Positions 2,389 to 28,085 of a DNA stretch of 51,827 nt are shown here, in pieces. Each line of letters begins with the position of its first letter. Positions within the stretch are counted from its first letter, which is position 1. Position numbers and translations under genes: made by a program. Origin of the DNA: Obrimoposthia wandeli. Its lineage: Eukaryota. Location: assembly GCA_977020255.1 (NCBI GenBank), contig CDROCS010001208.1, positions 1-51,827 of the forward strand, given 5' to 3'. Under the pieces are notes generated by a model. The model had not been told where the DNA came from. It was given only the letters and a program-made list of their open reading frames with translations, and did not search any database.

Positions 2389-2530
2389 GTTTTAATAATA
2401 TAAACAAGTTCAGTCTTTTATACTTAATTGAAAAATCAATATTATTGTTATCCAATTAGAATAGAGAATTATAGTATAAACAATTGATTATTTTATATTA
2501 TTATCTGAAATAATTATGTATATCGCCAAT

Positions 2531-5390: not shown

Positions 5391-5540
5391 GGTGATGACG
5401 GTTGGTTCTATATCGACAACCAACTTGTGATTAAACTTTCAAATATGAAAATGGACCTTCCGCATGGTGGATTCGTGGGTATCGGGACTGACAAATACGG
5501 GTATGCAATGTTCAAGGACTTCGCTGTCAACGGTGAATGA
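5391..5540 (+). pseudogene. Orphan terminal exon resembling the galactocerebrosidase (GH59) C-terminus
   Basis: TGTAG acceptor, then GDDGWFYIDNQLVIKLSNMKMDLPHGGFVGIGTDKYGYAMFKDFAVNGE*, similar to the GALC tail GWAAIGT..FAQFDNF. No upstream exons recognised. Confidence 0.5.
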
Positions 5541-6005
5541 ATCACTACTCATTACATCGACATAGTTTGTATTTCTCAAGGTTTTTATTTGTTTGAAATG
5601 TAATTAAGAAGTATTTTGATATCCCGTGATGGTACAAAGAAATTTAATGCACATTAACTGATTTGGATGAGCATGTTATCGAAATATAGTTTTTTGTTAT
5701 AACTCTTTTTAAATATCATTTGCTAATTTAACACTCAGAAAAAAACACACAAATCAAAAAATTTAAGCTGCATTATATGGTTTTTATATTTTTAAATGCG
5801 TTACAATTGGTATTATACAATGTTTTTGTTTCTGTTTTAATATGCATAACAGAGATGCAACCAGCTGGTACTGGCCGATAAATTACTCCTTTTTTTAAAT
5901 ATTCAATTTCTTTTAGTAGTATTTGAAAAAATAGTTTAGATTTTTATTTGAAAAAATCATTTTATTGAAGCATTAACAATATGTTATTTTACTTACGTTA
6001 TTTCC

Positions 6006-7345
6006 TCTTCGTATCCGGTATATAGCCCTTTTGGCACATTTTATCATGATCTCAAAGACCTCTCCAAAATGTGGTACATGTGGTGGGTTGAAGACCCAAC
6101 GTATCTCCTCCTTTACTAACTCCTTTTGAATCTGATAACCGTCCCGTATCAATTCGCTCACTTCATTCACCGCCCCTACAAAATTTGTGCCATTATCCGA
6201 GATTATCATTTGTGGTCTCCCTCTTCTTCCTAAAAATTATTTTAATGCCCTAATAAACCCATCGATATCCAAACCATAAGCCATCTCTAAATGAATGGCC
6301 TGCGTTTGTAAGTATGTAAAAGGCAAAGGTATATCTTAGTCCTCACTATTCCACGTCCTTCCTTTGTGATGAATGGTCCTGCAAAATCCACTCCGACGTT
6401 TGCAAAGGCCCTTAACGGTATTTCGAATCTGAATGCCGGCAAGGAAGCCATCTCTTTGACCATCCCTGCGACTTTACCTTTATTGCAGTCGAAGCATTCT
6501 CGCTCTATTTCTTTGATTACTCTTTGTACTTTAGGAATCCAATATTTATTTTGGCTCTCATTCGGTATATTCTGTACTCTGGCGTAATGCCGTAACCTCT
6601 CGTGTGTATCCTTTATGATTAATCTAGTCAGCCAACTCTTTTCTGATAACAAAATGAGATATTTTGTGTCATTATCTAAAAACTCCGCATTCATAATTTG
6701 GGTATTGGCTCTGATTATTTCTATTTCATCAACCCACGGTTTCAACTTTAGTAATGAGCTTGTTATCTCAATCTCTTTCTTCTTTATTAACCGTTGGTAT
6801 TCCTTGCAGAAATACTGAATTTGTTCATGCTTTATCAACAACTGCATCCCTTTTTCCACTTCATCCATTTTCAGCTCGCCTACAAGTCTGCGATTTTGAG
6901 GTAACTTTATATTTCGTGCAAATCTTAGTATCCCAGCTAAGACTCTCTTCAATCTCGTTAAGTCGGAATAAGTCTCTATTTTCAATCTTCCTGTATGAAC
7001 ATTGTTACTTCCTTGTACCGTTTCTTTTTCTTTTAATCTGACTGTATTTCTTCTAAGTCTAAATTATCAATCGCATCGTCACTTTGCCTGCGTATTCATT
7101 ACGCATGTATACTACTGCGCCATACCTTAAAGTTATCTGCGTTTACTTGGGTTACGATTTGAGCCATTAACGGCGAAGCATTTATTCCAAAGACTACTTT
7201 CTGAAATCCATACATATCCCTCAGGTTCTCTCTATTTTTCCCTAAAAACCTTAGCCATGGGCGGTCTTCCTTACATACCTTCATATGTAAATACATCTTT
7301 GAAATGTCACACACTAACGCTATTACATTCCTTCAAATTCCCTAA
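6006..7345 (-). mobile_element. BEL/Pao LTR-retrotransposon pol fragment (RT piece plus integrase), truncated at 6006
   Basis: CDISKMYLHM..DRPWLRFL..VFGINASP (BEL RT), then THERLRH..CFDC, VGVDFAGPF, SDNGTNFVGA, and PHFGEVFE. Confidence 0.88.
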
Positions 7346-7863
7346 CAGAGAGACCCAAGCACTACATAGGAACTAAAAAGAAATAAAATTTGTTTTTGGA
7401 AATTAAATTCAATAATTTTACTGGACATCCTCCTACGAAGAATACTACAGATAATTATTTTTATTTTTGTGTTAGGTTCATGTATTCATGTGTTAAAATA
7501 TTGAAGTTTTAATTTATGTAACTCTCAGAATATTTAGCCCCCTGGTCATTTTTATTTGTATGTATTAAAATTAAATTACAATTTTTGTATTTAATAGAGC
7601 CCAACATATACTAGAGATATGAAATTAATTGATAATAAAATATTTCATTTTATAGAATATAATTAGATTAAAAATATTGGATATGCTTCTTTGTACTTTC
7701 TTCATTTAAAAAATGTGCGTGTTTAATATCTTTATATTCAAAGTCATTTAAGTTTACTTTTACTTCGAACTACAGACTTGATTAATTTATTCACTTTTTA
7801 TCTTACTGATTCTTTTTCTTGATCTCTTATGCTTTACTTTTTCTTTGCATTTACGTTTTACTA

Positions 7864-8510
7864 TCAACTTCTTAAAATGCAATGCAAATTATTTTTTTCT
7901 TTTTGTTTATAAACAGTTACTCCCTTAGAATTAAATATATATGTTAAAACACGTAAATCATATAAGCAGGCTTGTGTAAATTCAATAAATATATATCCAT
8001 GTGCTTGTTTATCAGCATCATGGAATGAATGAACTAGAAAGTTTTTATTTTGGGTAAAAGCTTGTCTGGCCACGAAATCTACAACTGTTTGATCTCTCGA
8101 ATTTTTAAATAATACTAAGTAATGTATATTAAAATATCTTGATCTATGATGACATCCTTGATGAAAAAGATTTTGAGTGATAAATATATCTGTTACTTCA
8201 CGATGTCTTGCAATCTTTGTAAATAAATTATTAAAGTTCGATTCCTTGTTAGCTTCTTGATACTAATCATCAATAATTAATATATTTTATTTCTTCAATC
8301 TTTCGCACAAGTCGTATCAAATCCTTCAATAAATATTATTACCTTCAACTTGCAAACTTCTGTTTGGTCTATCCCACTTTCCCCTCTTCCACCATGATAC
8401 TAAAAAAATATTTTTAAAACTGGAATTGAAAATAGTTTCATTTTGTAACAATTTCCTGGGATCCACTTTCCACTGGGATCAACTATTTGAAATACGGTAT
8501 TTTTATTCAT
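7864..8510 (-). pseudogene. Second Polinton A32-like ATPase remnant
   Basis: MNKNTVFQIVDPSG (degenerate Walker A), LIIDD*YQEANKESNFNNLFTKIARHREVTDIFITQNLFHQG, YLVLFKNSRDQ, and AHGYIFIEFTQ. Confidence 0.82.
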
Positions 8511-8559
8511 CTTCTTTACATCTAGACTTTCATATAACAATTTATTTTCAATATTCGAT

Positions 8560-9040
8560 TCAACAGCGTATTGATAATCCAAATTTATCAATCTCAAAAT
8601 CATAAGTTTCCCACTGAAAAATATATTTACACATAGCGGTGTAAACGTCAAATATCTGAGTGCAGGAAACTTTTCAGGTTCAAACATGCATCGTTCTTTC
8701 ATTTTCTCTGTAATTTTATAAAGATTTATTGGTTTCCCAAGATTTTATGAAACTATGATTGATTGTTTGGCGCCGATTTGAATTCCAAAGAGTAAATTGA
8801 TCTAATTCAATGGTGTTTTGCATCCCATAACACGACAACTTCCTAAAAAATTCAATATGAAAATAAAATAAAAACTAACTTGAGGGAAGCAAACCAACTG
8901 TTTCGATACTGAGAAGACCCACTCTTCTCAACGAGACATTAAACAATGAGGAAGTATAATATACTGGTATATACGGATTGGCATAAAATGATTCTTCATA
9001 ACTTGTTAAGCTTATATTGCTCCAAATACTTTTTAGTATT
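8560..9040 (-). pseudogene. Second TBP-like remnant with a 37-nt intron (8843-8879)
   Basis: TVG(L/I)(L/F)PS, intron, SCRVMGCK, QSIIVS, NLGKPINLYK, and MFEPEKFPALRYLTFTPLCVNIFFSGKLMILRL. In-frame stops are present. Confidence 0.65.
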
Positions 9041-9205
9041 CAGAAACGAAAAACTAAATTCATTTCAATAAAATTCTTTCAACAATTGAGGATATTTATA
9101 AATTTATTTTCAACCAATACATTATTACAAAAAAATATTTAGATACAATTGAATTTTCTGAACAGATAATACATAATTTTAATACAAAATTTATCAAATC
9201 ATAGA

Positions 9206-10075
9206 ATGGATTCATGTATCATTTGTACTGGAGAGCTAGAGGATGATGAAGTTTGTGTGACTGAGTGCAGACACTATTTCCACACCGAGTGTCTCAAGGT
9301 ATGGATGCTAGTCAACTGTAGCTGTCCATTTGAACGAAATGAATTGCAGTACATCTTCATTTGTCAAAATGGCACTGAGAGCCGAGTTAGAGTGGCCACA
9401 CTTCTGCGGAAAGAATGGGAAGGATTGTGCAGAGAGATTGTGGAGGATACGAAAGCGAAGTGTTCGGTCTTGTATGAGGTGCTGACGACCCAGATGGTGC
9501 TGACCCATGAATTTCTAGAATTAGCTGCACAACAACGGGATCACGGACCGACACTGGAAAAGTGGTTCCATTGTCTTTCGTATTTGTGCAACACTATGCA
9601 AAGCTTCGAGGATGAGTTCACAGAAAACTTCATCAAGGTCCTGGAAACAGAACAGAACTCAGAAGGCTCTGACAGTCTGGAGTCGTCTTTGAATTGCATG
9701 AAAGATGTGCAAGAACAGCTGTTATCTCTTGTACACATCTGCAGCGTGTTAGGAGCCATAGGTGGCGATTTGGACCGGGTCCGATCTTTGTGTCAAGATT
9801 TAGAACTACTGGTCGACATCACACGGGAAGGTGTACTCGATCTCAAGATCTACTTCCTCACGACGAAGCTGCCAACTCAGCTGAGAGGTAACATGAAAAT
9901 AGTGCTTTTTGGAATAGCTTCAATGCAGCATTGTGCCATGTGCCGAGAAGAAATCGTTGATGTTGAGCGACTCCACGAGAGCCCCAAGACCTTAGGTATT
10001 TGTGGTCACAGGATCTGTCACAACTGTACCCTAGAATTACACGAGTTGGACATATTTTGTCCACATGAAAATTGA
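9206..10075 (+). CDS. Intronless 289-aa double-RING protein, putative E3 ubiquitin ligase (copy 1)
   Basis: N-terminal RING-H2-like set C4/C7/C21/H23/H26/C29/C40/E43, C-terminal RING-HC-like set C243/C246/C266/H268/C271/C274/C285/E288, and an acidic, probably helical middle. ATG-to-TGA intact, with AATAAA at 10113-10118. Confidence 0.85.
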   Translation: MDSCIICTGELEDDEVCVTECRHYFHTECLKVWMLVNCSCPFERNELQYIFICQNGTESRVRVATLLRKEWEGLCREIVEDTKAKCSVLYEVLTTQMVLTHEFLELAAQQRDHGPTLEKWFHCLSYLCNTMQSFEDEFTENFIKVLETEQNSEGSDSLESSLNCMKDVQEQLLSLVHICSVLGAIGGDLDRVRSLCQDLELLVDITREGVLDLKIYFLTTKLPTQLRGNMKIVLFGIASMQHCAMCREEIVDVERLHESPKTLGICGHRICHNCTLELHELDIFCPHEN

Positions 10076-10266
10076 ATTCTTTTGACAAGTACCAAAAAGG
10101 CTTTGTTTTTTTAATAAATTTAGTAATCTTTCTAAAATTACTTTTAATATTATTAAATTGAACAAAGGCAGTTATTTATTTTAATATAACATTATAAATA
10201 ACATGCTTTTAATTTTTTTATTAACAATATATTTAACAATATTTACACTTCAAACCTTTAACTAAC

Positions 10267-10393
10267 CATGTAGTACAGTTGGCGTCCACAAAATGTAAGA
10301 ATACAGGTTGATTTAATCCACTCAATGATGCTGGAGGGGATTTGAGTGTTTTATTTTACACTGCAATAAAAGCCGTTACAATATTTGTTCTAT
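10267..10393 (-). pseudogene. Orphan 127-nt exon resembling the GAIN/GPS region of an adhesion GPCR (other copies at 23254-23380 +, 29147-29273 -, 42147-42273 +)
   Basis: TTTCAG acceptor and GTTAGT donor. Encodes RTNIVTAFIAV*NKTLKSPPASLSGLNQPVFLHFVDANCTT(W), with one in-frame TAA. Confidence 0.45.
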
Positions 10394-10829
10394 CTGAAAT
10401 ACAAATGAATAAAACATTAGGAAAGTGAGAACTTACTAACTATTCATTTTTTATATTTAATACTTGATATATATTTAATGTTAAAAATAAACTATCTTAT
10501 TTAAACTTTTTAGATTTTTTTATTAAATTTTAAATCTAGTGAGGATACAAGTTAAGGGTTATGGAATACTGGCGGGTAATTTTAATACTTTTACCATTTT
10601 TTAATTAATTTTTATTATATTTGAATTTTTATTATTGAAATATTAATTAACTAAATTTTAATTAATTAAAATTTTATAATACATATCCGTTTAATAATAT
10701 AATTTTATTTAAATACACAAATTAATATATTTTATATTTTTACTAAAAATAATGTTAAATAATCAAACATTACCGATAAAACTTTTTCTAAAGTGGGAAA
10801 ATAATGAAAAATTATAAAAACCTAAATAT

Positions 10830-11015
10830 AAATAGAGAATAAGATTGGATCAAGTAACGAACACCGGGCAAACACTGCATTTTAAGTATTCAGGGTCTGA
10901 AACAGTATCATCAAATTTTAACAGATAGTTTCCGCTAAATAAAATCCCTTTTAAACCAATTAAGCTCTCCACAATTCAAATGCGGCAGATAGATCAAAAA
11001 GTATTATTAGTACTC
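10830..11015 (-). mobile_element. Non-LTR retrotransposon (CR1/L2-like) RT fragment (other copies at about 22630-22815, 29725-29895, 41525-41710)
   Basis: ILFDLSAAF and SLLDPILFSIY, matching LDLSAAFD and GSVLGPxLFxxY. Confidence 0.6.
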
Positions 11016-11283
11016 ATTTTTCATAGTTTAAATATTTTAATACATTTTATACTAAACAATGCCATTTTAGTTCAATGATAACTTCTATAAGCTGTTTGGC
11101 AAATACATAAACACATTCTTTTTTAAGTAAATGATGAATGGTGTCAGAACTTATTTTTCAAGAACTTTCAATAGACATTAAAAGTTTAAATTGTATTTAC
11201 AAATTGATAGATTGGCTTTGTGCGCACACCAAAACATAATACCGAAAATGATTGCATAATCCCGCAAGGATGACCTGTCACAC

Positions 11284-11599
11284 CACAAGGGTATGGCTAA
11301 GATAGGTTATGAAACTTTGAAGGTATGATTGTGACCTTATATAGTTGACCAACACACTTAGAGGGTTATGGACGTCTATAGATGAAAACCCAGGTTCAGT
11401 TATAACTTGAAGATTTAGAGATAAAGCTGAGGTCAACTATGGTTGGCCATCACATCTAAAGGATTGTGGTCGTCCGTAAATGAAGTGGTCGGACTAAAGG
11501 CCAAATCAAGTTTCAAATATGAAGGTTTGAGTATATGGTTGGGATAATCTTCATCCTTCCACCTACTAAAAGAGACAATAGAAATAACAAATTGCACAC
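11284..11599. repeat. Degenerate, internally repetitive dispersed element (mirror at about 40942-41257), related to 16900-17030
   Basis: Recurrent TATGGTTGGCCA, ATAGATGAAA and TTATAACTTGA motifs shared with the reverse complement of 16900-17030. Confidence 0.5.
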
Positions 11600-12074
11600 T
11601 ATTAGCATTACAAAGACGATTAACTTTATATCAAACGTCTCGATGGTTTCACTTATTTCTGTCAGTGAATGAGATGTCAATTCCAGTCAACTATAATAGT
11701 AAATAAAAACATGTCTGTTATCAGTAAATACCAAATATTTATTGAAGGTGACTACTGAATTTTTGTCGTTTTTTTCTTAGTTTAAAACTTTAACGAAATA
11801 TAGAAATCAATACCATAAATAACTAAAATATAAAGAATTTGTTACATACATCATTTTTCTGTTATTTTAATAACTTAGCAGTGCATATAACGTCTTTGAA
11901 ATGACTTTTTCCACATATCATCTTGGTTTTTTTGGAACAGTGTATACAATGGTGCAGCCTTTTGACAGGTAATGCATAAAAAAGATTAAAATTCTAGGTA
12001 GTGTACTAAAAAAATTTAAATTGCAAAAGTTATAACTTAATCTTAAAAAATACCAAAAACCGTAATATCTAATC

Positions 12075-12620
12075 TAGCTTCATCTCAGACCCTCTTCAAG
12101 TTCTGGCAGGTAGATGCTGTTGGCAGAGGGATAGCAGTGTCCCAAGCCCTGGCCAAATTTTACCTGGTGCTTAATGGAGCCGGTTCTGTCTCCTGCAGAC
12201 ATCGTTGACTGTGAGGCGGACTAATCTCGATTGGAGAGACTGGTATCCTCTCGAACAAAATTGGCCCGTAGTCCACTGGAAATGGGAGAATCTCCTGATG
12301 ACCTGATGGCCTTCCTCTTCCACGAAGCTTTCTTCAGTTTCTCCTTCTCATGCTGAAGCTGACGTGAGACCGCATCCTGCTGCCCTCGCGAATCTGGAAG
12401 CATTGTCGGTTCCGGATTCTCCAGTTCTGCAGGCAATTCGTCCAATCCAGCTTCATCCCAGTCCATGATCAATCACTGCTTCTCTAGAATTGAACATTGC
12501 GGTGATACACTTTTGGAGCGCTTCGTTTTCTGCACATCTGCTCGCTTTACCCGTTTCCGCGAGAAAGGAGAAATTTATCGCCAAGTCTCCTCAGTTACCT
12601 TTGAAGGACCATGCAATAAA
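12075..12620 (-). pseudogene. GC-rich decayed ORF of unknown family (mirror at about 39920-40465 +)
   Basis: Sharp compositional island with partial frames, for example MDWDEAGLDELPAELENPEP..HEKEKLKKASWKRK. Several stops and frameshifts. Confidence 0.3.
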
Positions 12621-13499
12621 GAATTGTTAAATATTATAAAATATTTAGATAAAAAATATTATTAAATATATTAAAATTTTCCTCAATAATAGGATAAGGA
12701 AGTTTATTTTAATGTTCCATTAATGTCTCCGTAGAATGTAGAATATTGGTTTTCGACTTTCTAATGCGTTTGGTCTCTCTTCTATGAGTGTTGCAGGTTA
12801 CTGCAAAAGAACATCAATAACATTTGACATGTATAGATTTTTTTCACTCCACACACATGCACGGTATTAAATGACAGTGGTAGCCCTCCGGCGATAGGAG
12901 GATGGCGTGAATTAGACCGGACATATCCACCTACTCATGAGCAGACATATAATATCTATGAAATTATTGTGCTTTCAATTGAAGGTCACATAAGCATAGA
13001 TTATCATAAGTAGACAAGTGTAGACAATTTATCGTATAAGACACTGAAAGAGCTTTAAATCATAAGCCACTAACAACTTTATTGATTTAAATTCAACTTT
13101 AAAAAATACTCCAATAATTATAATCATAATTATTTAGGCATATCACCAGGATTTCAAACTCATAATCCATGGAATGGATTATTATAATTCTATAACAAAA
13201 ATAATAATAAACTTATCATTATTACCACTACACATTATCATCCCACCATCACCCACCATCACCACTATCATCATCACAATTACCACATATTTTGGTCTCA
13301 TTAAAAAATCAATACAACCAATCCTTACTTTCATTATTTAGCATTGGCCAAGTTAGGTGTGCATAACCATTAAATTTACCAAATCAATAAAACCAAGGCT
13401 TACTTTTATTATTCAACATTGGCCAAGTTTATATTTGTGAGTACCTTATTTCCGTGTCATTTAATTTTCGTGAGACATAAATAATAAGTTGATTATCTT

Positions 13500-13900
13500 G
13501 TAATAGAACAGCACCGAGCCCATAGTCACTGGCATCTGTTCTAAGTTTCACTTTAACTCATTATTAAATATTTTCAAAGGGTTTATAATTGATAATTCAT
13601 GTTTCAATTTTATAAACTGAGATTCATGGCTGTCTTTCCATACATAAACATCTTTCTTCATAATATCCCATAAATCTCCAACTAATTCCGAATAGCCTTT
13701 AGATAACTTCTGACCCACATATCCTGCTAAGTCTAAAACACTTCTAAATTCATTGTGATTCTTTGGTGTTGGATATGCTTTCAATTTATCACATCTATCT
13801 TTCGTAGGTCTCAATCCGTCGGCACGTAACATATCTCCTAAACATTTAACTGTTCTTTTACATTATTCACCAAACACCACATATTTCCTACTCTCTTTAT
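13500..13900 (-). mobile_element. Ty3/Gypsy RT-RNase H junction fragment (mirror at about 38640-39040 +)
   Basis: LKAYPTPKNHNEFRSVLDLAGY..VWKDSHESQFIKLKHEL, then RTDASDYGLGAVLLQ. Confidence 0.8.
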
Positions 13901-15089
13901 TTAATAAAATCTGGTGATAATCTTTTTTGGCATCCAGAACAAAAATATTTTTCACCACTATCATCATTACATTTACCACAGAAATCTAGGAACTACAATT
14001 TTAATTACTAATCTTGTAGTGTATAATAATGTATATTTTCTAGGCCTTCAAAAGGGTAGAGAAAGTCTTTCTTGGCTATTTATTAAAAAAAATTGAAGAA
14101 TGACAAATTTAAGAAAACATTTGACATATTGGGAAAAATTTATAATCGAAAAAAAAACAATATCAGAAAACCCTTAAAATATTTCCTACAAAAATTGAAT
14201 GTTAAAAATTCTAGTTTAGTGCAATTATCAATGTTGTGTGTTTGTTCGAATAAGCAGAATGGAATAATTGTAGTGTAGCAAAATTTTGTAATAATTATTT
14301 CGTGAGTTTTCGTAAATAACAATATAATTTACTTAAAAATGTATTTTCAGCTTTATAATTTTCTTCACTTATTTCTTTAAGTTTTTTGGTTTAAGTCTCT
14401 GGAAAAATTAGTTAATACAATTCCGAGTATCCCGTTGACAAGAACTGCATTATCTTCTAAACTTTTAATCATATTGGTATACATATTCTGAAAGACCTCT
14501 TGTGATAATAAAAAATCTTTATAATTTAATGCATCTCACAACAAATATGTTTAACATGTCCTTAAATTTCACTCGACCAACTAACTTGTGATCACCTCCC
14601 AGATCATATTGCTATACTCCCCATACTGAAGCCACTGATTTATTTCACTAAAACCTTATATCATGTACTCTTAATGTTAAATAAATATTTTTTAAAAATA
14701 GTATATAAATAACAAATAATTTTTTGGTCAGCTTAAAATGCTTATTATCAGTAAAACACTATTTTCTCCATATATCTTCTGGTTAATCTGTGTATTAATC
14801 CTTTTCAACAATGATTCTTTTGTCAATATAAAATAGTACGTGAATTAATTTGTTAGATATTGTCTACTTTGTAATAAAAGACAATTAAATAATTGATAAA
14901 AACGACAATTATATTCTCAATGTTTAGTTTAATACTATTTATAAACTTTATTGTATTTCTTTATTATAGTTTTAATTACTAGATAATTGAACAGTTTTCA
15001 AACCTAATACTTTCTTTGTAGTTTGTTATCTAGCGCAATTAGCGTAATATCCATCTCATTGTCAAGAACTTCAACATTTGAATTTAGAA

Positions 15090-15345
15090 AAATGTCACAA
15101 TAAAATACAACAATATTATGGGTATAAATATCGTTAAGACATGTATTATATTTGTTATATCTCCGAATTCAATAAATTCAAAACTCTATGTTTCCAAAAT
15201 TATATCAACTCCAATCGTTTTGTTTCCCAATGAAATTGTTATAACTCAAAATGCGATAAATTCAACAACAAAAATCAAAATGCAATTTTTTATTTCCAAT
15301 ACGGTTCTGTAAATTGTCAAAGCAATGATAATAATTATTATAGTT
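15090..15345 (-). pseudogene. Possible decayed multi-pass membrane (GPCR-like) exon fragment (mirror at about 37195-37450)
   Basis: Hydrophobic frame IIIIALTIYRTVLEIKNCILIFVVEFIAF*..IIHVLTIFIPIILLYF. Family not secure. Confidence 0.25.
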
Positions 15346-15759
15346 GTTTGTGTCACGAATCCAAAAATATGTTGCTATTTATAGCAACTGATCACCTGCA
15401 TACAGTCAGCAGTAAATGCTCAGTTAACAGAGTGCAAAAGGCAGAGATAAGGAGATATCGATTTGTGCTGTAACTGTTTTTGGAGACACACAAACATGCA
15501 GAAGACTGCCGCTGTTGAAAGAAGAGAAAACAGGACTGCATCCGATGAAGGCGGTCTGGACAGCGGAGGTTGCCGAGCGATGAAGATGTGGAAGAAGGTC
15601 CGGAGTTCTGCTTCCCGCGCCAAGGCAGATCGCGGTAGTGGAGGTGGTTCTGTGAAACCTGAACGACTTTGTGCAGGTAAGTGTTTTTCTTCTAATCTGT
15701 TTTTCTTTTTTATCTCTGACTTCGCTGGCATTTTGCCCACCGCGAAGCTAGAGATAAAT

Positions 15760-15813
15760 CTGCCGTCCCCCCGACGAGCCGGCAGGGCGAAACCGGTTAA
15801 GCCGGTCAGGGAC
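15760..15813 (+). ncRNA. Type I hammerhead ribozyme-like motif with a U4C core variant
   Basis: Stem I GTCCC(C)/(A)GGGAC; core CCGACGA; stem II GCC-GGCAG-GGC; GAAA; stem III ACCGG-TTAAG-CCGGT; GTC cleavage triplet at 15805-15807. The 5' tail CTGCC is complementary to loop II GGCAG. Confidence 0.68.
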
Positions 15814-16269
15814 TGAAGGAAAACAAAAATGCCAAAGTGCATCTATATAACCCCTCCAATCGCCCCTCAATTAAGGGAACAATTAATTAACTTTTCCACT
15901 AATTAACCCATCATAAATAACTCAATTTTTTCATTCCCAACATATTTGTCCATATTGTTCAACTACAGAACTGGATAATTATAAGAATTTTATAGAAAAC
16001 ATTATTTAATAAGCATTTATAAGTAGAAAAAGATTTTTAAATTCAATTCCGACTATAGCTTTAAATTATGATTTGACTCCAATCGCAGTTCCGGCTTCGA
16101 CAATGAAAGTTGCTCATCTAGATCTTATTGATTTAAAAATTCCGAATAATCTTCTATTTAAAGTAGCAGAAATAATGAATAATATGGGCAATGCAAAAAT
16201 TCAATACATTATACGGATGAAATTAAAAAAGGAGAACGGTCTCATAAGGCGGTCATATTTATTTATGAA

Positions 16270-16790
16270 AAATGCCTGAAATCGAAGAAACTATGGATAA
16301 GAGAGTTGAAGAATATTCCGAAAATGAAGTGGATGGAAATTAATAAAAGTTTTAGACTATGTATTTGTCATAACGAAATATAGTGAAAGATCTGCATTAT
16401 CTGGACATTCAAACATTCCAACACCAAAATCGTTATAAAAAAGTAAAGCTATTGTAAGTTTTCAAAACAATGACAATCTGTGTTTTATTTATGTAATTCT
16501 GGCTGTTTTGAAACATGGTGAGATTACTAATCATACAACTCTTGTATGAAAGTATTCACCAGTTTTGAAAGATTTGATGTTTGACGAAACAGATATGCCA
16601 ATGAAGATTTCAAATATATTAAAGTTTGAGACAAAGAATCCGAATATAAGGATTAATGTACTTTTATACAATGATGCCGTCATCGAAGAAAAATATGTTT
16701 ATGTTATAAAAATTCCTACATATACATTGCATATAAATCAAAGAAAAAGGTAGGAAATATTGTTAATTTGATACTGTTGGAGAATATATC
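16270..16790 (+). pseudogene. Polinton protein-primed DNA polymerase B N-terminal-region fragment (mirror at about 35750-36270 -)
   Basis: SGWKLIKVLD, KSKAIVSFQNNDNLCFIYVILAVL, and MPMKISNILKFETKNPNIRINVLLY..IVNLILL, matching the GSGW..KKAIINVKNxDNKCF..FPVxLxDIxKFEKxN..INV pattern. Confidence 0.7.
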
Positions 16791-17619
16791 AGAGAATATT
16801 GGAGAAAAATATCCCAGTAAAATTTAAAGTTCAGATTTAAATAAATTTTAAAAATTAAGATGACATCAAATATAACTTCAAGTCGTAACTGATCCCTACC
16901 CCTTCATATATAGACGACCTCAACCCCTTGGATATGTTGGCCAACCATACCTTCAAACCGTCAAGTTATAATTGAGCCAGACTCTTTCATCTATGGATGA
17001 AAAAAACCCCATATCTGATTATCCTGGCTTGTTTTGATAATAAACTAATTAAAATGGTTTGTTTTAAAAACATCGCTAAATACAGTTTAAAGCACAAGTT
17101 TAGTAACTGTTGATATAATTACCAACTAACAACCAATGTTACTCAAATTAAACTAATATTAAAAGTGATATACACCTGTGTTCTACTTCATTATTAGCAT
17201 GGGGTCACTGCGACCACTTCATGATAATGTATCATTTTATGTAATTAATTTTTCAAGTACAAGTACGATTGCATACATATATATATATATATATATATAA
17301 AAATATTCTAAAATTATTATTTTCTTTAAAATTATAATAAAAAAAATTATAAAGTGTTAAATTAATTACAATAATTAAATATACAAAAATTTAATACAAA
17401 TAACTATTACTGGCTCACATTTGAAAACCTTCTTCTGTTGTGGGATTTTTAAAGTTTATATATATGATTCGAACATGCTGAATTCCAAATTAATATTTAT
17501 TTACCTCTATCAGATCATGTTTACTCTATGGATCGTTCTTCAGTCTAATTTTATCCCAAAATATATTTTCATTTTTAACTCGAACTATGTTAAAATATTC
17601 TTCAAAAACATCTAAAACT

Positions 17620-18250
17620 TATATGCCTATCGTGATTTCTGTGAAAATTATGGTGCCTCCGCTTCCATTGTCCGCTGACTCGGCCTTCGTTGGTGTACGA
17701 ATTACCACAAGCGGATGTGCTTTAAATAGTATTATCTTGTTTATTAATTGTAAAATTGCATCCAGATCTTGGTCTTCTCCCCATCTTATCACTCTAAACA
17801 TTTAAATTTCATCCAATAAACCTCTTTAATTTCTTTCCTTCCATCGTATCTTTCTTCTAGCAATCTTAAAGCTTTATCGTAACTTGCATCCGTGAACCTC
17901 CATCAGCTGCAGCATTATTTTCTTGCCTTGGTGCATCGGTCTGATCGATGACAGTATCAAATATTGCCCGCCTACTCTCATAATATTTATAATCACCAAA
18001 GAAGTATGGAATACTAATCTTTTTCCGACCCTTTAAAAAGTTTCTGTCTGACTTCTTTTTATCTATTGACTTCTTCTTTCACATAGCTTGACTCTTCTTT
18101 GGTTCTAGTTTCAAATTCTCTTTCTATCTTTGCAATGTCACTTTTTATTTCCATTATCTCGAGTTGTTCTTTTACTCCAGCGCCTGCTCCAATTCCTTAT
18201 TATTTTGTTCACCAAATCTTCGTACGATATCTCTATACTCTTTTCTTTAA
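17620..18250 (-). mobile_element. BEL/Pao gag (DUF1759-like) remnant (mirror at about 34282-34912 +)
   Basis: KISIPYFFGDYKYYESRRAIFDTVIDQTDAP, SYDKALRLLEERYDG, and EI*MFRVIRWGEDQDL, preceded by a lysine/glutamate-rich coiled-coil-like stretch. Confidence 0.65.
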
Positions 18251-19149
18251 TCTGTATCTTCTCTAGTGTTACATGAATCTGACCACTCTTCTCCTGCTAG
18301 TATTATATCCAACTTAGTTATATTCTTCTCATGTTCCATGTCATCTTTCAATTTTGGTGTTACCCTGACGTTTGCACCGCTCTTAATAACGTCGTCTGGT
18401 CTTATGCATTTCCCTTCCGATTCCAACCAGTACTCCCAGAGTATCTTACCTTTCCACGTATATCCTTCCAACTACACCTCTCCATGTACTCAATCACACG
18501 GATATTTTTGCTCTATATTAAAAAACACGACTTGAGGTTAGGCTTAATGAAGGTATTTACTTTTACCTTTTTATCTTTATTCCCTAAAATATTGGTTGCA
18601 GAAAATGTACTATTTAAATTAGTCAATTGGGGAAAATGAGGAAAACGAGCTTCCGCAAGCTTTTCTACTAACACCCTTTCTTCCAAAGAGCAATGACTAA
18701 AAGACACTCTTGTCTCTCTAGTTCCTAAAAATATTCCGGGATTTGTATAAATAGTATCTATATTATACCGGTGACATATTCTAGTAGTGCTTATAACATC
18801 ATAATTTACCTTATCACTGAATCTGTCTAAAATTTGACCTATTCTAGTAGCGCTTATAATCGCGTCATTTACTTTATCGCCTAATGCTACCGTAAATCTT
18901 CAAAATGTTTCATTATTTACAATAACTGTTACAATTGACTTAATTCTACCCGATCAAATGAGAGAGAATTAATTAAAATATTTGTTAGTAAAAATTACTT
19001 AATTATTTTTTAAAAATATATATATATATGCAAAAATTATTTACATTGTCCTCTTTTGCTGCCTCTCCTTCAGTTTGATCTAAATCTTCGATTCTAGGTT
19101 TCTCCTTCTCCTCCGCTCTCTTCTCTTTCTCTACATACACTTTAATGGG

Positions 19150-21290
19150 ATACCATAGAGGCTCACTATCATCTATTTTCACAGCACTAGACTCTCACAA
19201 ATATTATTCCTCGTCATTATCTGCAACCAAATATGCCGAGTAAAATCCAACCCGCATTTTCCTGTTTTAGTAGACACTTTTGTCTTAACCATCATATATC
19301 TTAATGTGTGTATAACTCTTTCTTCCAGACCGTTACTTTGATTAAGAGCTGTATTGAACATACCAAATTTTCGTCGCTAATTCTGAAAATAATTTCCAGT
19401 AAATATTCGTCCTATATCTATTAAAATGCTTTTAGGTTTCCCAAATGTATATATTCAATTTGTCTATGAGTTCTTTAGTAATTGTTATTTCATCTTATTT
19501 TGTAGTTATTAATAGTAATACCAGTTTACTAAATCGATCGATTACTATCGACATATATTTCTTTTTAGATCATCCTTCCTTCATGTGGGCTGTATCGACA
19601 AGCATTTGATCTAAAAATTCAACTTATTTATTTTATTTTTTGAATTATTCTTTCCAAAATAAAATTATATTTCATATATTTATAAACCTTATGCATTCCT
19701 AGATGACAAAGATATTGATAAATGTTATTAATAATTTCATAAGCGTTTTCGTAGGTATGACTATTAAATCTGTAAAATTATGTTCAAAATAAAAGATATC
19801 ATCGCAGAGTTTAAGTGTTTCTTTTATCTGCTAAATCCAATTTATTTTGCATTCTTCTGATAAATCTATACTTTATAATTAAATGCACACTTTCATTTCT
19901 TTCACATGAATATATTCTTGTTGTATTTTTCTTATCTTACTGAAGAAGTTGTCTTCATTTAGTGAGTGAATATATTGTATTTTAGATATCTTCTCTTGTG
20001 CATATATATGTTTAGTTTTGCACTGAGTGCAGTCGGTTTCATTCAATCTTAACAAGCCATCGGCAATACCATGGTCAATACCTTTACGATGTTCTAACTT
20101 AAAATTAAATTTTGATAAACTTTCAGTAATATTTGAAATTGAGGACTGATTGAAATTTTTGTTGTTCTTAAAAACACTTACGATTTATGATATGTTCTTT
20201 CCAAAAATTCTGTTCCATATAAATATTGTTTGAAATACATATTAAATTAGTATTCTTCTAAAAGTTCCTTTCTGGTAACACAATATTCTTTCTCATGAAA
20301 AGTCAAATGTTTTGAAGCATATGCAATCACTTTTTTGTTTCTCATTTCATTCAGTTGGCACAATATTGCCCCAAATCGCACCAAAACTGGCATCTGTTAA
20401 AATTATAAATGTTTTATTTCACCTGGAAAAGTCTAGTATGATTGCCTTGTGACATAGTGGGACTGCAATATTGGCATAAACTTTTATAAATCGTCGATAA
20501 TAGTTTGTCATTCCTAAGTATGATCATAGTTTCCCTTACAGTCGGGTTCTTTGAAATTTATAATTTCGTTGACTTTAGACTGATTTATATGTATTTAGCT
20601 TTGTGTTATCGTATGACCTATGGCTTTTAACAGTTTCTGATCATTGTAGCGTTTATTAGGGTTTATATTGAGACCTGCAGCTGCAATTCTTTTGAATGCT
20701 TCCCTTAATAATTTATAATGTTCTTCTTGGTTGTTACTATAGACAAGGATATCATCCAGATATACAATTTTTCTTCTGAACAGCAATCCATTAGAATTTC
20801 TATGTATGATTCTGGAATGTGGCAGGTCCTGTAGCCAACCCAAATGGCCACCAACTGAAATAAAATTGTCTCAGTTTTGTACTGAGAGTCGATTTTGTCT
20901 GAGATTCTTTCTCTAGATCTACCTGGTAATAAGCTTGTCCAATATCTAGTGTCGTAAATATTTTTTCATCACCTATACAATCGAACAAGAGTTGTGCATC
21001 TTGTATTGAAAATGTAAACTTCTTGGTTACATCATATAATTGGCTGTAGTCAACACACATTCGATTTGTATTGTCTGGTTTCTTTACAATGACCAATGAA
21101 GGTTCGAATGACTTTCATCCTTTCATCAAATTGGATTTCTAATTGCATTGCTTGTCGTCTAGGATTTTGAAAAATTGGATCAGCAATAGTCTCAATCTTA
21201 TGAGAGACAATTTTGGTATATCCTCAATCAAATTTAGAACATATACATATTTTTCCAAACTCCTCAATATAATGTCCTAGAATTTAGTAT
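19150..21290 (-). mobile_element. Ty3/Gypsy pol pseudogene (RT, RNase H, integrase)
   Basis: VIVKKPDNTNRMCVDY, FTTLDIGQAYYQV, PFGLATGPATFQ, YLDDILVYS, LTDASF, VIAYASKHL, HRKGIDHGIADGL, VIDRFSK, and NQSNGLEER. Confidence 0.9.
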
Positions 21291-23586
21291 CTATCGCGTT
21301 TTAAAGAATTTCATATTGTATCTGATTTTTCTTTCGAGGAAAACTTTTTTATCATGCAAGACGAGTCTAAATTGCATAATATTACAGTTTTAATCTAAAA
21401 TATATCACAAACCTTAGAAAAGAGAATAAAATAATCTTAAAAACAATTTAATGTTACGATATATATTAGTATATGTCAGTTAAATATTAATAAAAACTTT
21501 TACTTTGAAATGTTATTTATATTTTTCTTTAAAAATGTAATTTTCAGATTTTCTGCAAAACGTCTTTGGCACTACTTTACCCAATGTTTAATTCTTTTTT
21601 TGGTATATATTTCATACTCTAGAATAATATGATGCCAAGTTATTCTGAGTTCCCCTACATCTTACAAAATTAATTTTGAAAAGTTTTTAAAACATGTCAG
21701 AAATGAATCAATAATAACAACAAGATAAATATTTAGTTAAACGTTTTTCTATCGTTTCTTCTGTCTCTGGGCAATATTTAGAATTCACGCGGAAAAGCCT
21801 TGGGGAAGTATAATTTTTTACCATTATCTATAATCATATTTGCATACCTTGAAACACATCGCAATCTACTAATATTTAATAAAGCCATGAGATGGCTGGG
21901 TAGCTACCATATGAAACTTTGTTACTGCACTGTCTAAAAATTAAAAATGTGTGAAAGTAAGTATACAAATAAATATATTCAATTTACTGAAAGACAGTGA
22001 CCGTTATATATTCAAAATGTCAAATTTCATTGTTGATTATTTAACTTAGTGTTTTATGGTTTGTTAGAAAAAATTTTGAATTGGTTTTTATTACAAATAA
22101 AATGATCTTTGATATTTTTAAGATTAAGTTATAACTTTTGCAATTTATTTTTTTAGTACACTACCTAGAATTTTAATGTTCTCTATGCAATACCCGTCAA
22201 AATTCAGTAGTCACCTTCAATAAATATTTGCTCATTACTGATAACAGGCATTTTTTTATTTACTATTATAGTTGACTGGAATTGACATTTCATTCACTGA
22301 CAGAAATCAGTGAAACCATCGAAAAGTTTGATCTAAAGTTAATCGTCTTTGTAATGCTAATAGTGTGACAGGCCATCCTTGTGGTATTATGCAATCATTT
22401 TCGGTATTATGTTTTGTGTGCGCACAAAGCCAATTTATCAATTTGTAAATACAATTTAAACTTTTAATGTTTATTGAAAGTTCTTGAAAAATAAGTTTTG
22501 AAACAATTAATCAGTTACTTAAAAAAAGAATGTGTTTATGTATTTGCCAAACAGCTTATAGAAGTTATCATTGAACTAAAATGGCATTGTTTAGTATAAA
22601 ATGTATTAAAATATTTAAACTATGAAAAATGCGTACTAATAATACTTTTTGATCTATCTGCCGCATTTGAATTGTGGAGAGCTTAATTGGTTTAAAAGGG
22701 ATTTTATTTAGCGGAAACTATCTGTTAAAATTTGATGATACTGTTTCAGACCCTGAATACTTAAAATGCAGTGTTTTCTCGGTGTTCGTTACTTGATCCA
22801 ATCTTATTCTCTATTTATATTTAGGTTTTTATAATTTTTCATTATTTTCCCACTTTAGAAAAAGTTTTATCGGTAATGTTTGATTATTTAACATTATTTT
22901 TTAGTAAAAATATATAATATATTAATTTGTGTATTTAAATAAAATTATATTATTAAACGGATATGTATTATAAAATTTTAATTAATTAAAATTTAGTTAA
23001 TTAATATTTCAATAATAAAAATTCAAATATAATAAAAATTAATTAAAAAATGGTAAAAGTATTAAAATTACCCGCCAGCATTCCATAACCCTTAACTTGT
23101 ATCCTCACTAGATTTAAAATTTAATAAAAAAATCTAAAAAGTTTAAATAAGATAGTTTATTTTTAACATTATTAATATATCAAGTATTAAATATAAAAAA
23201 TGAATAGTTAGTAAGTTCTCACTTTCAGAATGTTTTATTCATTTGTATTTCAGATAGAACAAATATTGTAACGGCTTTTATTGCAGTGTAAAATAAAACA
23301 CTCAAATCCCCTCCAGCATCATTGAGTGGATTAAATCAACCTGTATTCTTACATTTTGTGGACGCCAACTGTACTACATGGTTAGTTAAAGGTTTGAAGT
23401 GTAAATATTGTTAAATATATTGTTAATAAAAAAATTAAAAGCATGTTATTTATAATGTTATATTAAAATAAATAACTGCCTTTGTTCAATTTAATAATAT
23501 TAAAAGTAATTTTATACAAAGTAATTTTAGAAAGATTACTAAATTTATTAAAAAAACAAAGCCTTTTTGGTACTTGTCAAAAGAAT

Positions 23587-24456
23587 TCAATTTTCATGTG
23601 GACAAAATATGTCCAACTCGTGTAATTCTAGGGTGCAGTTGTGACAGATCCTGTGGCCACAAATACCTAAGGTCTTGGGGCTCTCGTGGAGTCGCTCAAC
23701 ATCAACGATTTCTTCTCGGCACATGGCACAATGCTGCATTGAAGCTCTTCCAAAAAGCACTATTTTCATGTTACCTCTCAGCTGAGTTGGCAGCTTCGTC
23801 GTGAGGAAGTAGATCTTGAGATCGACTACACCTTCCCGTGTGATGTCGACCAGTAGTTCTAAATCTTGACACAAAGATCGGACCCGGTCCAAATCGCCAC
23901 CTATGGCCCCTAACACGCTGCAGATGTGTACAAGAGATAACAGCTGTTCTTGCACATCTTTCATGCAATTCAAAGACGACTCCAGACTGTCAGAGCCTTC
24001 TGAGTTCTGTTCTGTTTCCAGGACCTTGATGAAGTTTTCTGTGAACTCATCCTCGAAGCTTTGCATAGTGTTGCACAAATACGAAAGACAATGGAACCAC
24101 TTTTCCAGTGTCGGTCCGTGATCCCGTTGTTGTGCAGCTAATTCTAGAAATTCATGGGTCAGCACCATCTGGGTCGTCAGCACCTCATACAAGACCGAAC
24201 ACTTCGCTTTTGTATCCTCCACAATCTCTCTGCACAATCCTTCCCATTCTTTCCGCAGAAGTGTGGCCACTCTAACTCGGCTCTCAGTGCCATTTTGACA
24301 AATGAAGATGTACTGCAATTCATTTCGTTCAAATGGACAGCTACAGTTGACTAGCATCCATACCTTGAGACACTCGATGTGGAAATAGTGTCTGCACTCA
24401 GTCACACAAACTTCACCATCCTCTAGCTCTCCAGTACAAATGATACATGAATCCAT
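23587..24456 (-). CDS. Double-RING protein (copy 2)
   Basis: Intact 289 aa. Differs from copy 1 by D14G, T27I, L211V and I237R. Confidence 0.85.
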   Translation of the reverse strand: MDSCIICTGELEDGEVCVTECRHYFHIECLKVWMLVNCSCPFERNELQYIFICQNGTESRVRVATLLRKEWEGLCREIVEDTKAKCSVLYEVLTTQMVLTHEFLELAAQQRDHGPTLEKWFHCLSYLCNTMQSFEDEFTENFIKVLETEQNSEGSDSLESSLNCMKDVQEQLLSLVHICSVLGAIGGDLDRVRSLCQDLELLVDITREGVVDLKIYFLTTKLPTQLRGNMKIVLFGRASMQHCAMCREEIVDVERLHESPKTLGICGHRICHNCTLELHELDIFCPHEN

Positions 24457-24622
24457 TCTATGATTTGATAAATTTTGTATTAAAATTATGTATTATCTGT
24501 TCGGAAAATTCAATTGTATCTAAATATTTTTTTGTAATAATGTATTGGTTGAAAATAAATCTATAAATATCCTCAATTGTCGAAGGAATTTTATTGAAAT
24601 GAATTTATTTTTTCGTTTCTGA

Positions 24623-25090
24623 ATGCTAAAAAGTATTTGGAGAAATATAAGCTTAACAAGTTATGAAGAATCATTTTATGCCAATCCGTATATACCAGTT
24701 TATTATACTTCCTCATTGTTTAATGTCTCGTTGAGAAGAGTGGGTCTTCTCAGTATCAAAACAGTTGGTATATTTCCCTCAAGTTAGTTTTTATTATGGG
24801 ATGCAAAACACCATTTAATGAGATCAATTTACTCTTTGGAATTCAAATCTGCACCAAACAATCAATCATAGTTTCATAAAATCTTGGGAAACCAATAAAT
24901 CTTTATAAAATTACAGAGAAAATGATAGAACGATGCATGTTTGAACCTGAAAAGTTTCCTGCACTCAGATATTTGACGTTTTCACCGATATGTGTAAATA
25001 TATTTTCCAGTGGGAAACTTATGATTTTGAGATTGATAAATTTGGATTATCAATAGGCTGTTGAATCGAATATTGAAAATAAATGATTAT
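24623..25090 (+). pseudogene. TBP-like remnant, inner copy with the intron acceptor deleted
   Basis: GTTAGTTTTTATTATGGGATGC: the acceptor and the SCRV codons are missing. A truncated mirror copy lies at 27598-27919 (-). Confidence 0.6.
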
Positions 25091-25113
25091 ATGAAAGTCT
25101 ATATGTAAAGAAG

Positions 25114-25744
25114 ATGAATAAAAATACCGTATTTCAAATAGTTGATCCCAGTGGAAAGTGGATCCCAGGAAATTGTTACAAAATGAAACTATTTCCAATT
25201 CCAGTTTTAAAAATATTTTTTAGTATCATGGTGGAGGAGGGGAAAGTAGAATAGACCAAACAGAAGTTTGCAAGTTGAAGGTAATAATATTTATTGAAGG
25301 ATTTGATACGACTTGTGCGAAAGATTGAAGAAATAAAATATATTAATTATTGATGATTAGTATCAAGAAGCTAACAAGGAATCGGACTTTAATAATTTAT
25401 TTACAAAGATTGCAAGACATCGTGAAGTAACAGATATATTTATCACTCAAAATCTTTTTCATCAAGGATGTCATCATAGATCAAGATATTTTAATATACA
25501 TTACTTAGTATTATTTAAAAATTCGAGAGATCAAACAGTTGTAGATTTCGTGGCCAGACAAGCTTTTACCCAAAATAAAAACTTTCTAGTTCATTCATTC
25601 CATGATGCTGATAAACAAGCACATGGATATATATTTATTGAATTTACACAAGCCTGCTTATATGATTTACGTGTTTTAACATATATATTTAATTCTAAGG
25701 GAGTAACTGTTTATAAACAAAAAGAAAAAAATTATAAAAAATAA
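25114..25744 (+). pseudogene. Polinton ATPase remnant, inner copy within the palindrome spacer
   Basis: Same motifs as 7864-8510. Confidence 0.8.
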
Positions 25745-27129
25745 TTTGCATTGCATTTTAAGAAATTGATTGTAAACGTAAATGCAAAGAAAAAGTAAAG
25801 CCTAAGAGATCAAGAAAAAGAATCATTAAGATAAAAAGTGAATAAATTAATCAAGTCTGTAGTTCGAAGTAAAAGTAAACTTAAATGGCTCTGAATATAA
25901 AGACGCACTTTTTTTAAATGAAGAAAGTACAAAGAAGCATACCCAATATTTGTAATCTAATTATATTCTATAAAATGAAATATTTTATTATCAATTAATT
26001 TCATATCTCTAGTATATGTTGGGCTCTATTAAATACAAAAATTGTAATTTAATTTTAATACATGGAAATAAAAATGACCAGGGGGCTAAATATTCTGAGA
26101 GTTACATAAATTAAAATTTCAATATTTTAACACATGAATACATGAACATAACACAAAAATAAAAATAATTATCTGTAGTATTCTTCGTAGGAGGATGTCC
26201 AGTAAAATTATTGAATTTAATTTCCAAAAACCAATTTAATTTCTTTTTAGTTCCTGTGTAGTGCTTGGGTCTTTCTGTTGGGGAATTTGATTCGGATTAG
26301 TTTAATCTAAATAAGGTTTGGTCATCTAGATAATTTGTCCACTTAGGTTCCATCGGGTAACCCGTTAGTAAGTGTGTATGCCTGTTAGTATTGTACAGTT
26401 TTATGTACTTCTTATACTATAGGACGTTTTTACCCAAAAGTGTAATTTTGATGAGCCGTACATTTTTCAATTGGAAATAATTTATGTTTTAAAATGATGT
26501 TTTGTTCATTTATGTGCGACTTTTAGATGTCTAGAAATTCTTCTTTCAAGTTTAATTAATTAACGTTTTAATTAACAAAAATCACATTTTTGTGGAACTT
26601 TTTTAATATGAAAATTTAAAAACTTTCGAGCATACATGAAGTAAATCAATATTTCATTAATCATTTATGAATAGTTCAGTTTTAGAGCTAAGGTCTTTCT
26701 TTAAAAGGTTATTCGTAAAAAGGTGAATTTTACATAAAATTAATTAATATTTTAAAACTATTTTTCTTTATTGTGGGAAACATTTTAATTACATATCATT
26801 TTAATAAGTATTTTAGTATAAACTTTATGCATAACTTAGGCAATTGTTATTTATTTGCTTTATATTTTTTAAGGATAGTTATTTAATTATTTGTTATTTT
26901 AATGTTCTTTTAAATTTAACTCTAACATATACTTTGAGTAATCAATAATTAATCAATGTAGTGAACTTACCTCTCCGAGATTTGAGCACTATATGGGCGA
27001 TCATTGAGATTTTCAGTTCTAAACGGTCTTAAATAGGATTAATAAGTATCTTGTGGTGATGGGAGGGGAGTTAAAAACACTTATGCATTACTTTATATAA
27101 TTCATAAAGTAAAAAATCATCAGAAAAAT

Positions 27130-27515
27130 TGTAATAAAATAAAACTTGATGAAGGCAATCCAACTGTATCTGATTGGAAGTCTTCTTAATTGACAGAATT
27201 CATCCAGATGTCGTCTGTTAATTCAACGAAATCAGATCCCTAGATGTCCCCCAACCAGCTGTTGTTGCTCCATTGAGGCTGCTCCCTCTCGAAATCTGAC
27301 TGAGTGATATTTTCCATCCAGTCAATGTTCAAGTCCTCAAAATCTTCTTGGGAGAGGACGTTCATCCACTCATTGTTAGTTATTTGTGTGGATGAGGCAG
27401 CAGCGGATTCGGGAGAATGGAGGGAAGGACCAATATCAGGACCGTAAACAGGTTGAAAGGCTGCAACTGGAACAGGAGCTGGAGCTTGAATAATCAGCGA
27501 ATCGCACGATGGCTC
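27130..27515 (-). pseudogene. Acidic, Pro/Ala-rich ORF remnant with four W-x7-DF repeats
   Basis: WMNVLSQEDF, WMENITQSDF, WLGDI*GSDF and WMNSVN*EDF occur in one frame. Confidence 0.4.
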
Positions 27516-28085
27516 TCAAATTTTAGACAGATTCAGTGATAAGGTAACTATATTGATAACTATATTCTAAAAAAATAATTTTTCATTGATCGATATATCA
27601 AACATGCATCGTTCTATCATTTTCTCTGTAATTTTATAAAGATTTATTGGTTTCCCAAGATTTTATGAAACTATGATTGATTGTTTGGTGCAGATTTGAA
27701 TTCCAAAGAGTAAATTGATCTCATTAAATGGTGTTTTGCATCCCAAAATAAAAACTAACTTGAGGGAAACATACCAACTGTTTTGATACTGAGAAGACCC
27801 ACTCTTCTCAACGAGACATTAAACAATGAGGAAGTATAATAAACTGGTATATACGGATTGGCATAAAATGATTCTTCATAACTTGTTAAGCTTATATTTC
27901 TCCAAATACTTTTTAGCATTCAGAAACGAAAAAATAAATTCATTTCAATAAAATTCCTTCGACAATTGAGGATATTTATAGATTTATTTTCAACCAATAC
28001 ATTATTACAAAAAAATATTTAGATACAATTGAATTTTCCGAACAGATAATACATAATTTTAATACAAAATTTATCAAATCATAGA

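Follow-up and report, generated by a model that had tools for sequence, protein, structure and literature searches.

How four copies of a RING gene block came to lie in alternating orientation along one contig was the question raised by C1208 of Obrimoposthia wandeli (CDROCS010001208.1, assembly GCA_977020255.1), an unplaced contig whose whole length of 51,827 nt is the window analysed here. Self-BLAST revealed nested inverted repeats, and C1208 is a 48-kb palindrome around an older inverted pair of the block. Copy A (7333-12057, forward strand) comprises a repeat end, a Polinton-like remnant, and the RING gene, and meets a retrotransposon at 7333 through a 2-bp microhomology. Copy B (22108-26290, reverse strand) carries its RING gene at 23587-24456, and copy D (40483-45204, reverse strand) at 42465-43333, the latter with a 1-bp frameshift that is possibly a sequencing error. 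Copy C (27598-30419, forward strand, RING gene at 28086-28955) is incomplete: the point of fold-back lies within copy B, and copy C begins only at the equivalent of 8680.

Much of the preliminary description was recovered. The RING orientations are +, -, +, - (ORFs at 9206, 24456, 28086, and 43333), and the inversion of 7333-12052 at 22113-26290 appeared as a match of 7333-11283 to 26290-22363 (96.2%, 75 mismatches), followed by inverted pieces at 11595-11763 versus 22367-22199 and 11960-12057 versus 22202-22108. Copy B lacks 11284-11594 and 11764-11959, the internal deletions reported before, and exactly 7 sites differ in the 205 bp upstream of the RING ATG. The later mirror image is indeed the less diverged, with 99.5% identity between 6002-24944 and 46535-27598 against 96.2% for the inner block. 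The four-way tree called for earlier paired outer with outer and inner with inner copies (AD|BC at 36/36 informative sites, 0 for the alternatives, 2561 sites compared), which backs two successive events. The idea that the same 4-5 kb block was doubled both times did not hold, as the copy profile gave a second duplication of at least 21 kb.

The left arm of the outer palindrome (3545-24944, forward strand) bears a 2.8-kb deletion at 5995/6002, shared with contig C1661, and the right arm (27598-51827, reverse strand) retains the corresponding 46536-49370 and ends inside a Polinton-like terminus. Between 6002-24944 and 46535-27598 the arms differ by 47 substitutions and 26 indel events, and they extend through 3545-5995 versus 51827-49371 (96.9%) up to the contig end. 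They enclose a single-copy spacer of 2653 bp (24945-27597). The junction (27548-27604, forward strand) is made of 3 inserted bases, a 54-bp templated insert that matches, without a difference, a C1661 sequence lying 718 bp farther downstream, and a 7-bp inverted microhomology at 27598-27604; at least 7 bp were matched in 109 of 100000 simulated junctions (P ~0.001). A kb-sized single-copy spacer and a short inverted microhomology at the turn are the marks of a fold-back, so the fold-back origin proposed earlier is supported for the outer palindrome. Human fold-back inverted duplications have spacers of 766-70,466 bp (median 3,428), inverted microhomologies of 2-8 bp, and local templated inserts (PMC3907307); the outer junction fits this anatomy, which supports an explanation by template switching.

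The 23.3-kb unit at 4226-27547 (forward strand) was found whole in C1661 (38088-61418, 99.0%) and devoid of the outer fold-back, so that a single assembly holds the unit in both states. In C1661 the distal flank of the unit is intact and both direct and inverted duplications occur; breakage-fusion-bridge, one of the two processes named in the preliminary description, is thus not needed. Exclusively alternating inverted order was observed inside the window but not overall, as direct duplications are present at the unit and at other family loci. C868, C5001, and C1661 might represent allelic versions instead of separate paralogues. Relative to C1661, the left arm showed 25 private substitutions and the right arm 36 of 20,639 sites (symmetric, P 0.20), in addition to the 2.8-kb indel, and compared with C1661 and C868 the two arms had common derived states at 2 sites next to the insertion and at 3 sites of the retrotransposon. 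Mosaic tracts between the arms and C1661 were also present, and could be haplotype switches of the assembler.

The inner pair has a different structure. Its 10-kb spacer is composite: the A-side half (12058-17730) is a context common to C868 and to the C1661 flank upstream of 4226, and the B-side half (17728-22107) is a decayed LTR retrotransposon (RVT_1, E 7e-8) in a context common to C5001. C868 and C5001 each contain one of the two halves, and a 3-bp microhomology (17728-17730) links the A-side to the inverted B-side segment, which does not support a first round by fold-back. Neither a contiguous ancestral spacer nor sister arms were found; the whole-core quartet was mixed (11 sites for A+C868, 12 for A+B, 5 for A+C5001). 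In the flanks, A+C868 / B+C5001 was favoured at 11 sites versus 6 for A+B, and the C1661 pair gave the same split (15 versus 5); downstream contexts divide in the same way, A with C868 and B with C5001. In C868, moreover, A-type downstream sequence goes together with unbroken upstream DNA of the kind missing from A beyond 7333; the A-type context is then older than A. The inner pair therefore resembles a union of two older copies through microhomologies.

Between A-type and B-type copies, 47 fixed differences were counted in 3880 sites, with a longest gap of 1314 bp (permutation P 5e-5). This tract without fixed differences (9160-10472) lies over the RING gene: the coding sequence has 0/870 fixed differences versus 24/788 in the flanks, and non-coding sites 5/767. 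Arm-to-arm differences were lost here relative to outside copies, and we infer that the 1.3-kb tract was homogenised between the inner arms by gene conversion.

Several mobile elements lie in and around the block. Positions 1-4225 are the end of a high-copy Polinton-like element of ~14.5 kb, inside which the contig breaks; of 40 candidates scored, at least 36 matched it elsewhere over the full length (93-95%). Terminal inverted repeats (84% in C2719), an integrase (rve, E 7e-16, found in another copy of the element), and a length within 14-20 kb agree with Polinton/Maverick elements. Such elements also have a protein-primed polymerase, a capsid, and a 6-bp target duplication; here two candidate ORFs had no Pfam match, and a search for Polinton termini and target duplications gave no match. 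A remnant of a second Polinton-like family (7665-8901, reverse strand) has 80-84% DNA identity to segments in 4/4 other loci and contains a fragment that we take to be ATPase-like and a TBP-like ORF (8400-8744; Pfam TBP, E 3e-7). The decayed integrase region at 5973-7332 (reverse strand; Integrase_H2C2, E 7e-4, below the cut-off), presumably from a BEL/Pao-type retrotransposon, is interrupted mid-element at 7333, and its copy in C5001 runs on past this cut.

Taken together, the palindrome probably arose by template switching at microhomologies, either in replication or in the repair of a break, followed by partial gene conversion. Two diverged copies of the block region, C868-like and C5001-like, would have been joined in opposite orientation by switches at 7333 and 17728-17730, giving the 23-kb unit. 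The Polinton-like element then inserted at 4225/4226, as shown by its presence here and by the empty site found twice in C1661 and once in C868. Later, a broken end near 27547 may have slipped, copied 54 bp from just downstream, and folded back 2.6 kb at the 7-bp inverted match, after which at least 24 kb would have been recopied; the junction is observed directly, and these movements are its putative mechanism. Finally, conversion between copies would account for the observed erasure of differences over the RING gene. Our best reading is template switching in replication together with gene conversion, a mechanism of known kind, within a gene-family region prone to rearrangement.

The outer palindrome could alternatively be an assembly artefact, in which a chimeric fold-back long read caused the assembler to fuse two haplotypes of the 23-kb unit in mirror orientation and only the inner pair is real. 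Such chimeras are documented from library preparation, nanopore sequencing, or amplification (PMC6218980, PMC12870357), the contig is short, wholly palindrome, and stops at both ends in the same Polinton-like repeat, and the 0.25% substitution divergence of the arms would lie within the range of heterozygosity. The start of C1661 carries a noisy fold-back arm (79%) resembling one raw read, which indicates that this assembly can take in fold-back reads; transition:transversion ratios (23:24 in the arms versus 173:175 in the noisy arm) do not separate mutation from error. No bridging piece was found among the longest pieces listed of the public short-read contigs (4 runs of one sample and one study, possibly the assembly's own source), although such contigs drop rare joins, and the expected other flank was not found next to the Polinton-like element in any contig. 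These short-read contigs cover 30/30 bins and show block alleles, and in run X2 the depth of a RING contig was 275 versus 98-135 in three spacer pieces, which fits more copies without giving a copy number. We nevertheless consider an artefact unlikely: the spacer measures 2653 bp and nanopore fold-back artefacts are by definition turns within 200 bp (PMC12870357), three consecutive switches with microhomology are seen at the junction, both arms are clean, other junctions of the region have a similar templated style and are common to several contigs, and nine other family loci contain such palindromes, several of them deep in long contigs.

Two successive in-place fold-backs, by breakage-fusion-bridge or iterative fold-back as in the preliminary description, with the older one eroded and C868 and C5001 copied later from its arms, would agree with the copy tree, with the 12 core sites grouping A and B, and with an outer fold-back of the kind that can start a bridge cycle (PMC3907307). 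The two rounds, however, are of unequal size (4.7 kb and at least 21 kb), the A-type context of C868 is older than A, C1661 keeps distal DNA and direct duplications, and breakage-fusion-bridge does not explain interstitial inverted variants whose ends are intact (PMC10766186), making this history distinctly improbable. Least probable of all, and quite remote, is that the block travels as cargo of a mobile element or that the inversions result from recombination or aberrant transposition at Polinton ends; gene inversions in C. elegans have been traced to Polintons (PMC11414722). A Polinton-like remnant does lie in the block, both contig ends are Polinton-like, and block copies were found on 4 contigs. 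However, copy ends vary by locus and fall at microhomologies instead of element ends, the fold-back is 23 kb away from the element end, and the 3-kb flanks of 10 family loci have only the gene and common repeats in common, so that no shared termini with target-site duplications mark dispersed copies of a mobile unit.

The RING gene of copy A (9206-10075, forward strand) encodes 289 aa with an N-terminal RING-H2 (zf-RING_2, E 2.5e-10), a helical middle, and a Cys-rich C-terminus (structure model with pLDDT 63.5). As the N-terminal RING-H2 (PF13639) scored above the Pfam cut-off in 4/4 family members scanned, a RING-H2 E3 ubiquitin ligase is predicted. The frame is intact in 7/9 copies (pN/pS 0.40, P 0.009), and the single-ORF family occupies at least 156 loci. 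Protein searches gave 0 scored matches among 421 candidates, 1 match among 2068 (RING-only), and, against 1.84 billion representatives, 141 matches that nearly all cover the RING alone, the longest stretch being 146 residues (E 4e-5); unlike in known RING-H2 ligases, no full-length relative outside this genome was found by them. Fold searches returned nothing at E 0.001 or better, and none of the RNA runs contained the searched stretch. Atlas neighbours were generic RING clusters, mostly viral, with scores up to 0.92, and serve as a lead only. No description of the family or of the nested structure was found in the literature searched, mostly the main texts of openly available papers.

Recent inverted duplications (96-99.8%, gene inside) were present in 9/11 other opposite-strand RING-family loci versus 1/16 control stretches; by contig, the count was at least 11/75 versus 1/16, in samples that are not comparable. 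The other two of the 11 loci did not qualify (C2393, 605 bp, 83%; C2142b, 1.4 kb, 90%), nor did control C903, whose apparent nested palindrome is made of high-copy element copies. Direct duplications also occur at other family loci, and C1208 gives one example from a large RING family amplifying by inverted and direct segmental duplication.

C1208 resembles human inverted duplications with disomic spacer (PMC3907307) in its kb spacer, short inverted microhomology, and local templated insert; unlike these, it is interstitial, nested on an older inverted pair, with arms diverged by 0.25%, and it shows neither a telomere nor a terminal deletion. The mixture of direct and inverted copies, the joins at microhomologies, and a possible switch between homologues recall DUP-TRP/INV-DUP and iterative template switches (PMC11293582, PMC6480824, PMC10766186), but no long inverted low-copy repeat was found at the C1208 junctions, and in place of patient events this is standing variation in an invertebrate-like genome. 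Mammalian X/Y gene palindromes (10.1101/800185, PMC8600007) share the inverted arms, the conversion tract over the gene, and the multicopy family, whereas the arms of the RING family measure 1.5-21 kb, with apparently fast turnover and many independent loci. Newborn duplicates in C. elegans are likewise often adjacent and inverted (PMC2728529), but the C1208 copies are nested and concentrated in one RING family.

Human and yeast studies have already described the mechanism; the locus is of value for offering a readable natural series, one unit before and after fold-back with a three-step junction, and for pointing to a large uncharacterised RING family whose members are recurrently found in young palindromes. 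As a tentative and rather doubtful proposal, this would be an undescribed lineage-specific family of RING ligases (more than 150 single-ORF genes), with repeated amplification into palindromes and with gene-aimed conversion maintaining its function, similar to Y palindromes but scattered over the genome, and possibly a fast-evolving defence against the abundant Polinton-like elements. If the enrichment holds genome-wide, the family would be a place to test palindrome selection for gene-family upkeep outside sex chromosomes.

Self-BLAST of the window, which spans contig C1208 (51,827 bp) in full and belongs to a 1.35-Gb assembly with 30% GC, recovered both palindrome layers, and the nested inverted duplication put forward in the preliminary description is real. 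The inner pair opposes block copy A to copy B (7333–12057 against 26290–22108, inverted, about 96% identity), with two deletions in B relative to A, and the outer pair (6002–24944 against 46535–27598, inverted, 99.5% identity) runs on to the contig end. The exact count of 7 differences in 205 bp was reproduced, the strand switches across all four RING ORFs, as had been described, and the expected pairing of outer with outer and inner with inner copies was found, A+D and B+C grouping in 36 of 36 informative sites (tree support 100). In contrast, the proposal that the same block had been doubled both times fails, as the copy profile showed that the second event doubled all of 3545–24944 and cut copy B. 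The suggested iterative fold-back thus holds for the nested structure and only in part for the mechanism, since the inner pair does not look like the product of a single fold-back.

The RING DNA gave 10 matches on four contigs of the assembly. Contig C1661 contains the complete unit (4226–27547 of the window, 99.0%), with a normal continuation where the window folds back. It also carries a second, partial copy of the unit, placed in direct orientation, along with additional inverted repeats. Segments of the unit were also detected in C868 and C5001 at 94–97% identity, arranged in different orders; the copies on these three contigs may be alleles or paralogues. More inverted duplications (97–98.6%) lie close to the 23.3-kb unit in C1661, at 24603–39250 and 75538–102311, and this region looks like a rearrangement hotspot.

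The Polinton-like element at 1–4225, a high-copy element with copies about 95% alike, has an empty site in both occurrences in C1661 and in C868, and its insertion therefore preceded the outer duplication; no contig of the assembly links it to its expected opposite flank. Its ORF at 986–1414, which we take to be phosphatase-like, gave no Pfam hits. A second Polinton-like family is represented by a TBP-like ORF (8400–8744; relatives of 80–84% at four other loci), adjoined by a presumably ATPase-like fragment. A deletion of 2.8 kb at 5995/6002, accompanied by a short templated insert, is present in the left arm and C1661, not in the right arm or C868, and reflects either sequence exchanged among copies or a switch of haplotype. 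A 298-bp tandem duplication (47292–47888, 99%) lies within a segment unique to the right arm.

At the outer junction, the window departs from the C1661 path at 27547, where 3 added bases repeating a local motif are followed by 54 bp matching sequence 718 bp downstream in C1661, and then turns onto the other strand where 7 bp match, with a spacer of 2653 bp between the arms. At least 7 matching bases occurred in 109 of 100,000 simulated junctions. The downstream site is the likely, not certain, donor, because the insert belongs to a high-copy repeat. This arrangement fits the fold-back model of human inverted duplications, as outlined in PMC3907307. Relative to C1661, 25 private substitutions were found in one arm and 36 in the other, of 20,639 sites, as expected for ageing sister copies.

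It is improbable that the outer palindrome is an assembly artefact, even if fold-back chimeras are documented for amplified and nanopore data (PMC6218980, PMC12870357), and C1661 itself starts with a noisy mirror arm (1–4385, 79% match to 5782–10593) that is probably one raw fold-back read. Against such an origin stand the kb-sized spacer, the three-step construction of the junction and the other palindromes of the RING family. Short-read contigs confirmed the block, with no junction-spanning piece among those listed.

A-type and B-type copies showed 47 fixed differences in 3880 sites, none of them in 9160–10472, which spans the RING gene (P = 5e-5). The non-coding portion was depleted too (5 of 767 sites, against 24 of 788 in the flanks, P = 5e-4), so selection alone is insufficient to explain the pattern, which probably reflects gene conversion. 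The RING frame is intact in seven of nine copies, with a pN/pS of 0.40 from counts pooling related copies. Template switching and conversion are both established kinds of mechanism.

As for the inner pair, the DNA downstream of copy A continues in C868 and that of copy B in C5001, the two spacer halves joining at a 3-bp microhomology (17728–17730); at the opposite end of copy A, a retrotransposon is cut at a 2-bp microhomology. Gene-flank sites favoured A+C868/B+C5001 in 11 cases and A+B in six, and whole-core informative sites numbered 11, 12 and 5 for A+C868, A+B and A+C5001. Two diverged block copies would have been joined, with later exchange between them. In human triplications, template changes from one homologue to the other have been described (PMC6480824).

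Literature searches found no description of this locus or RING family, and protein searches no full-length relatives outside this genome. With two distant paralogues as queries, at least 156 family loci were found on 75 contigs, a floor obtained by hand-merging 133 and 137 matches in which only the best candidates were scored. Members are single-ORF genes (RING-H2, helical and Cys-rich parts) about 25–35% identical to the query paralogues. Neighbours up to 50 kb apart comprised 25 opposite-strand and 32 same-strand pairs. Eleven opposite-strand loci were taken from 10 of the 15 other contigs with such pairs, and nine were inverted duplications including the gene (1.5–7.9 kb, 96–99.8%), a proportion that is not a family-wide rate because the loci were selected for opposite strands. 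Direct and inverted copies are mixed in C2142, C1478 and C736, the last with six RING copies in strict +,−,+,−,+,− order (43000–118000), where inverted arms reach 7.9 kb (97.4%) and direct repeats 5 kb. Among 16 control stretches of 50 kb, hand-picked on long contigs, four showed inverted repeats of at least 1 kb, three being high-copy elements and one a low-copy inverted duplication without a RING gene (C1043, 321568–338864, 95–97%). The structure model of the RING protein comprises the RING, then long helices and an unresolved C-terminus, and its domain suggests that the family may encode E3 ligases.
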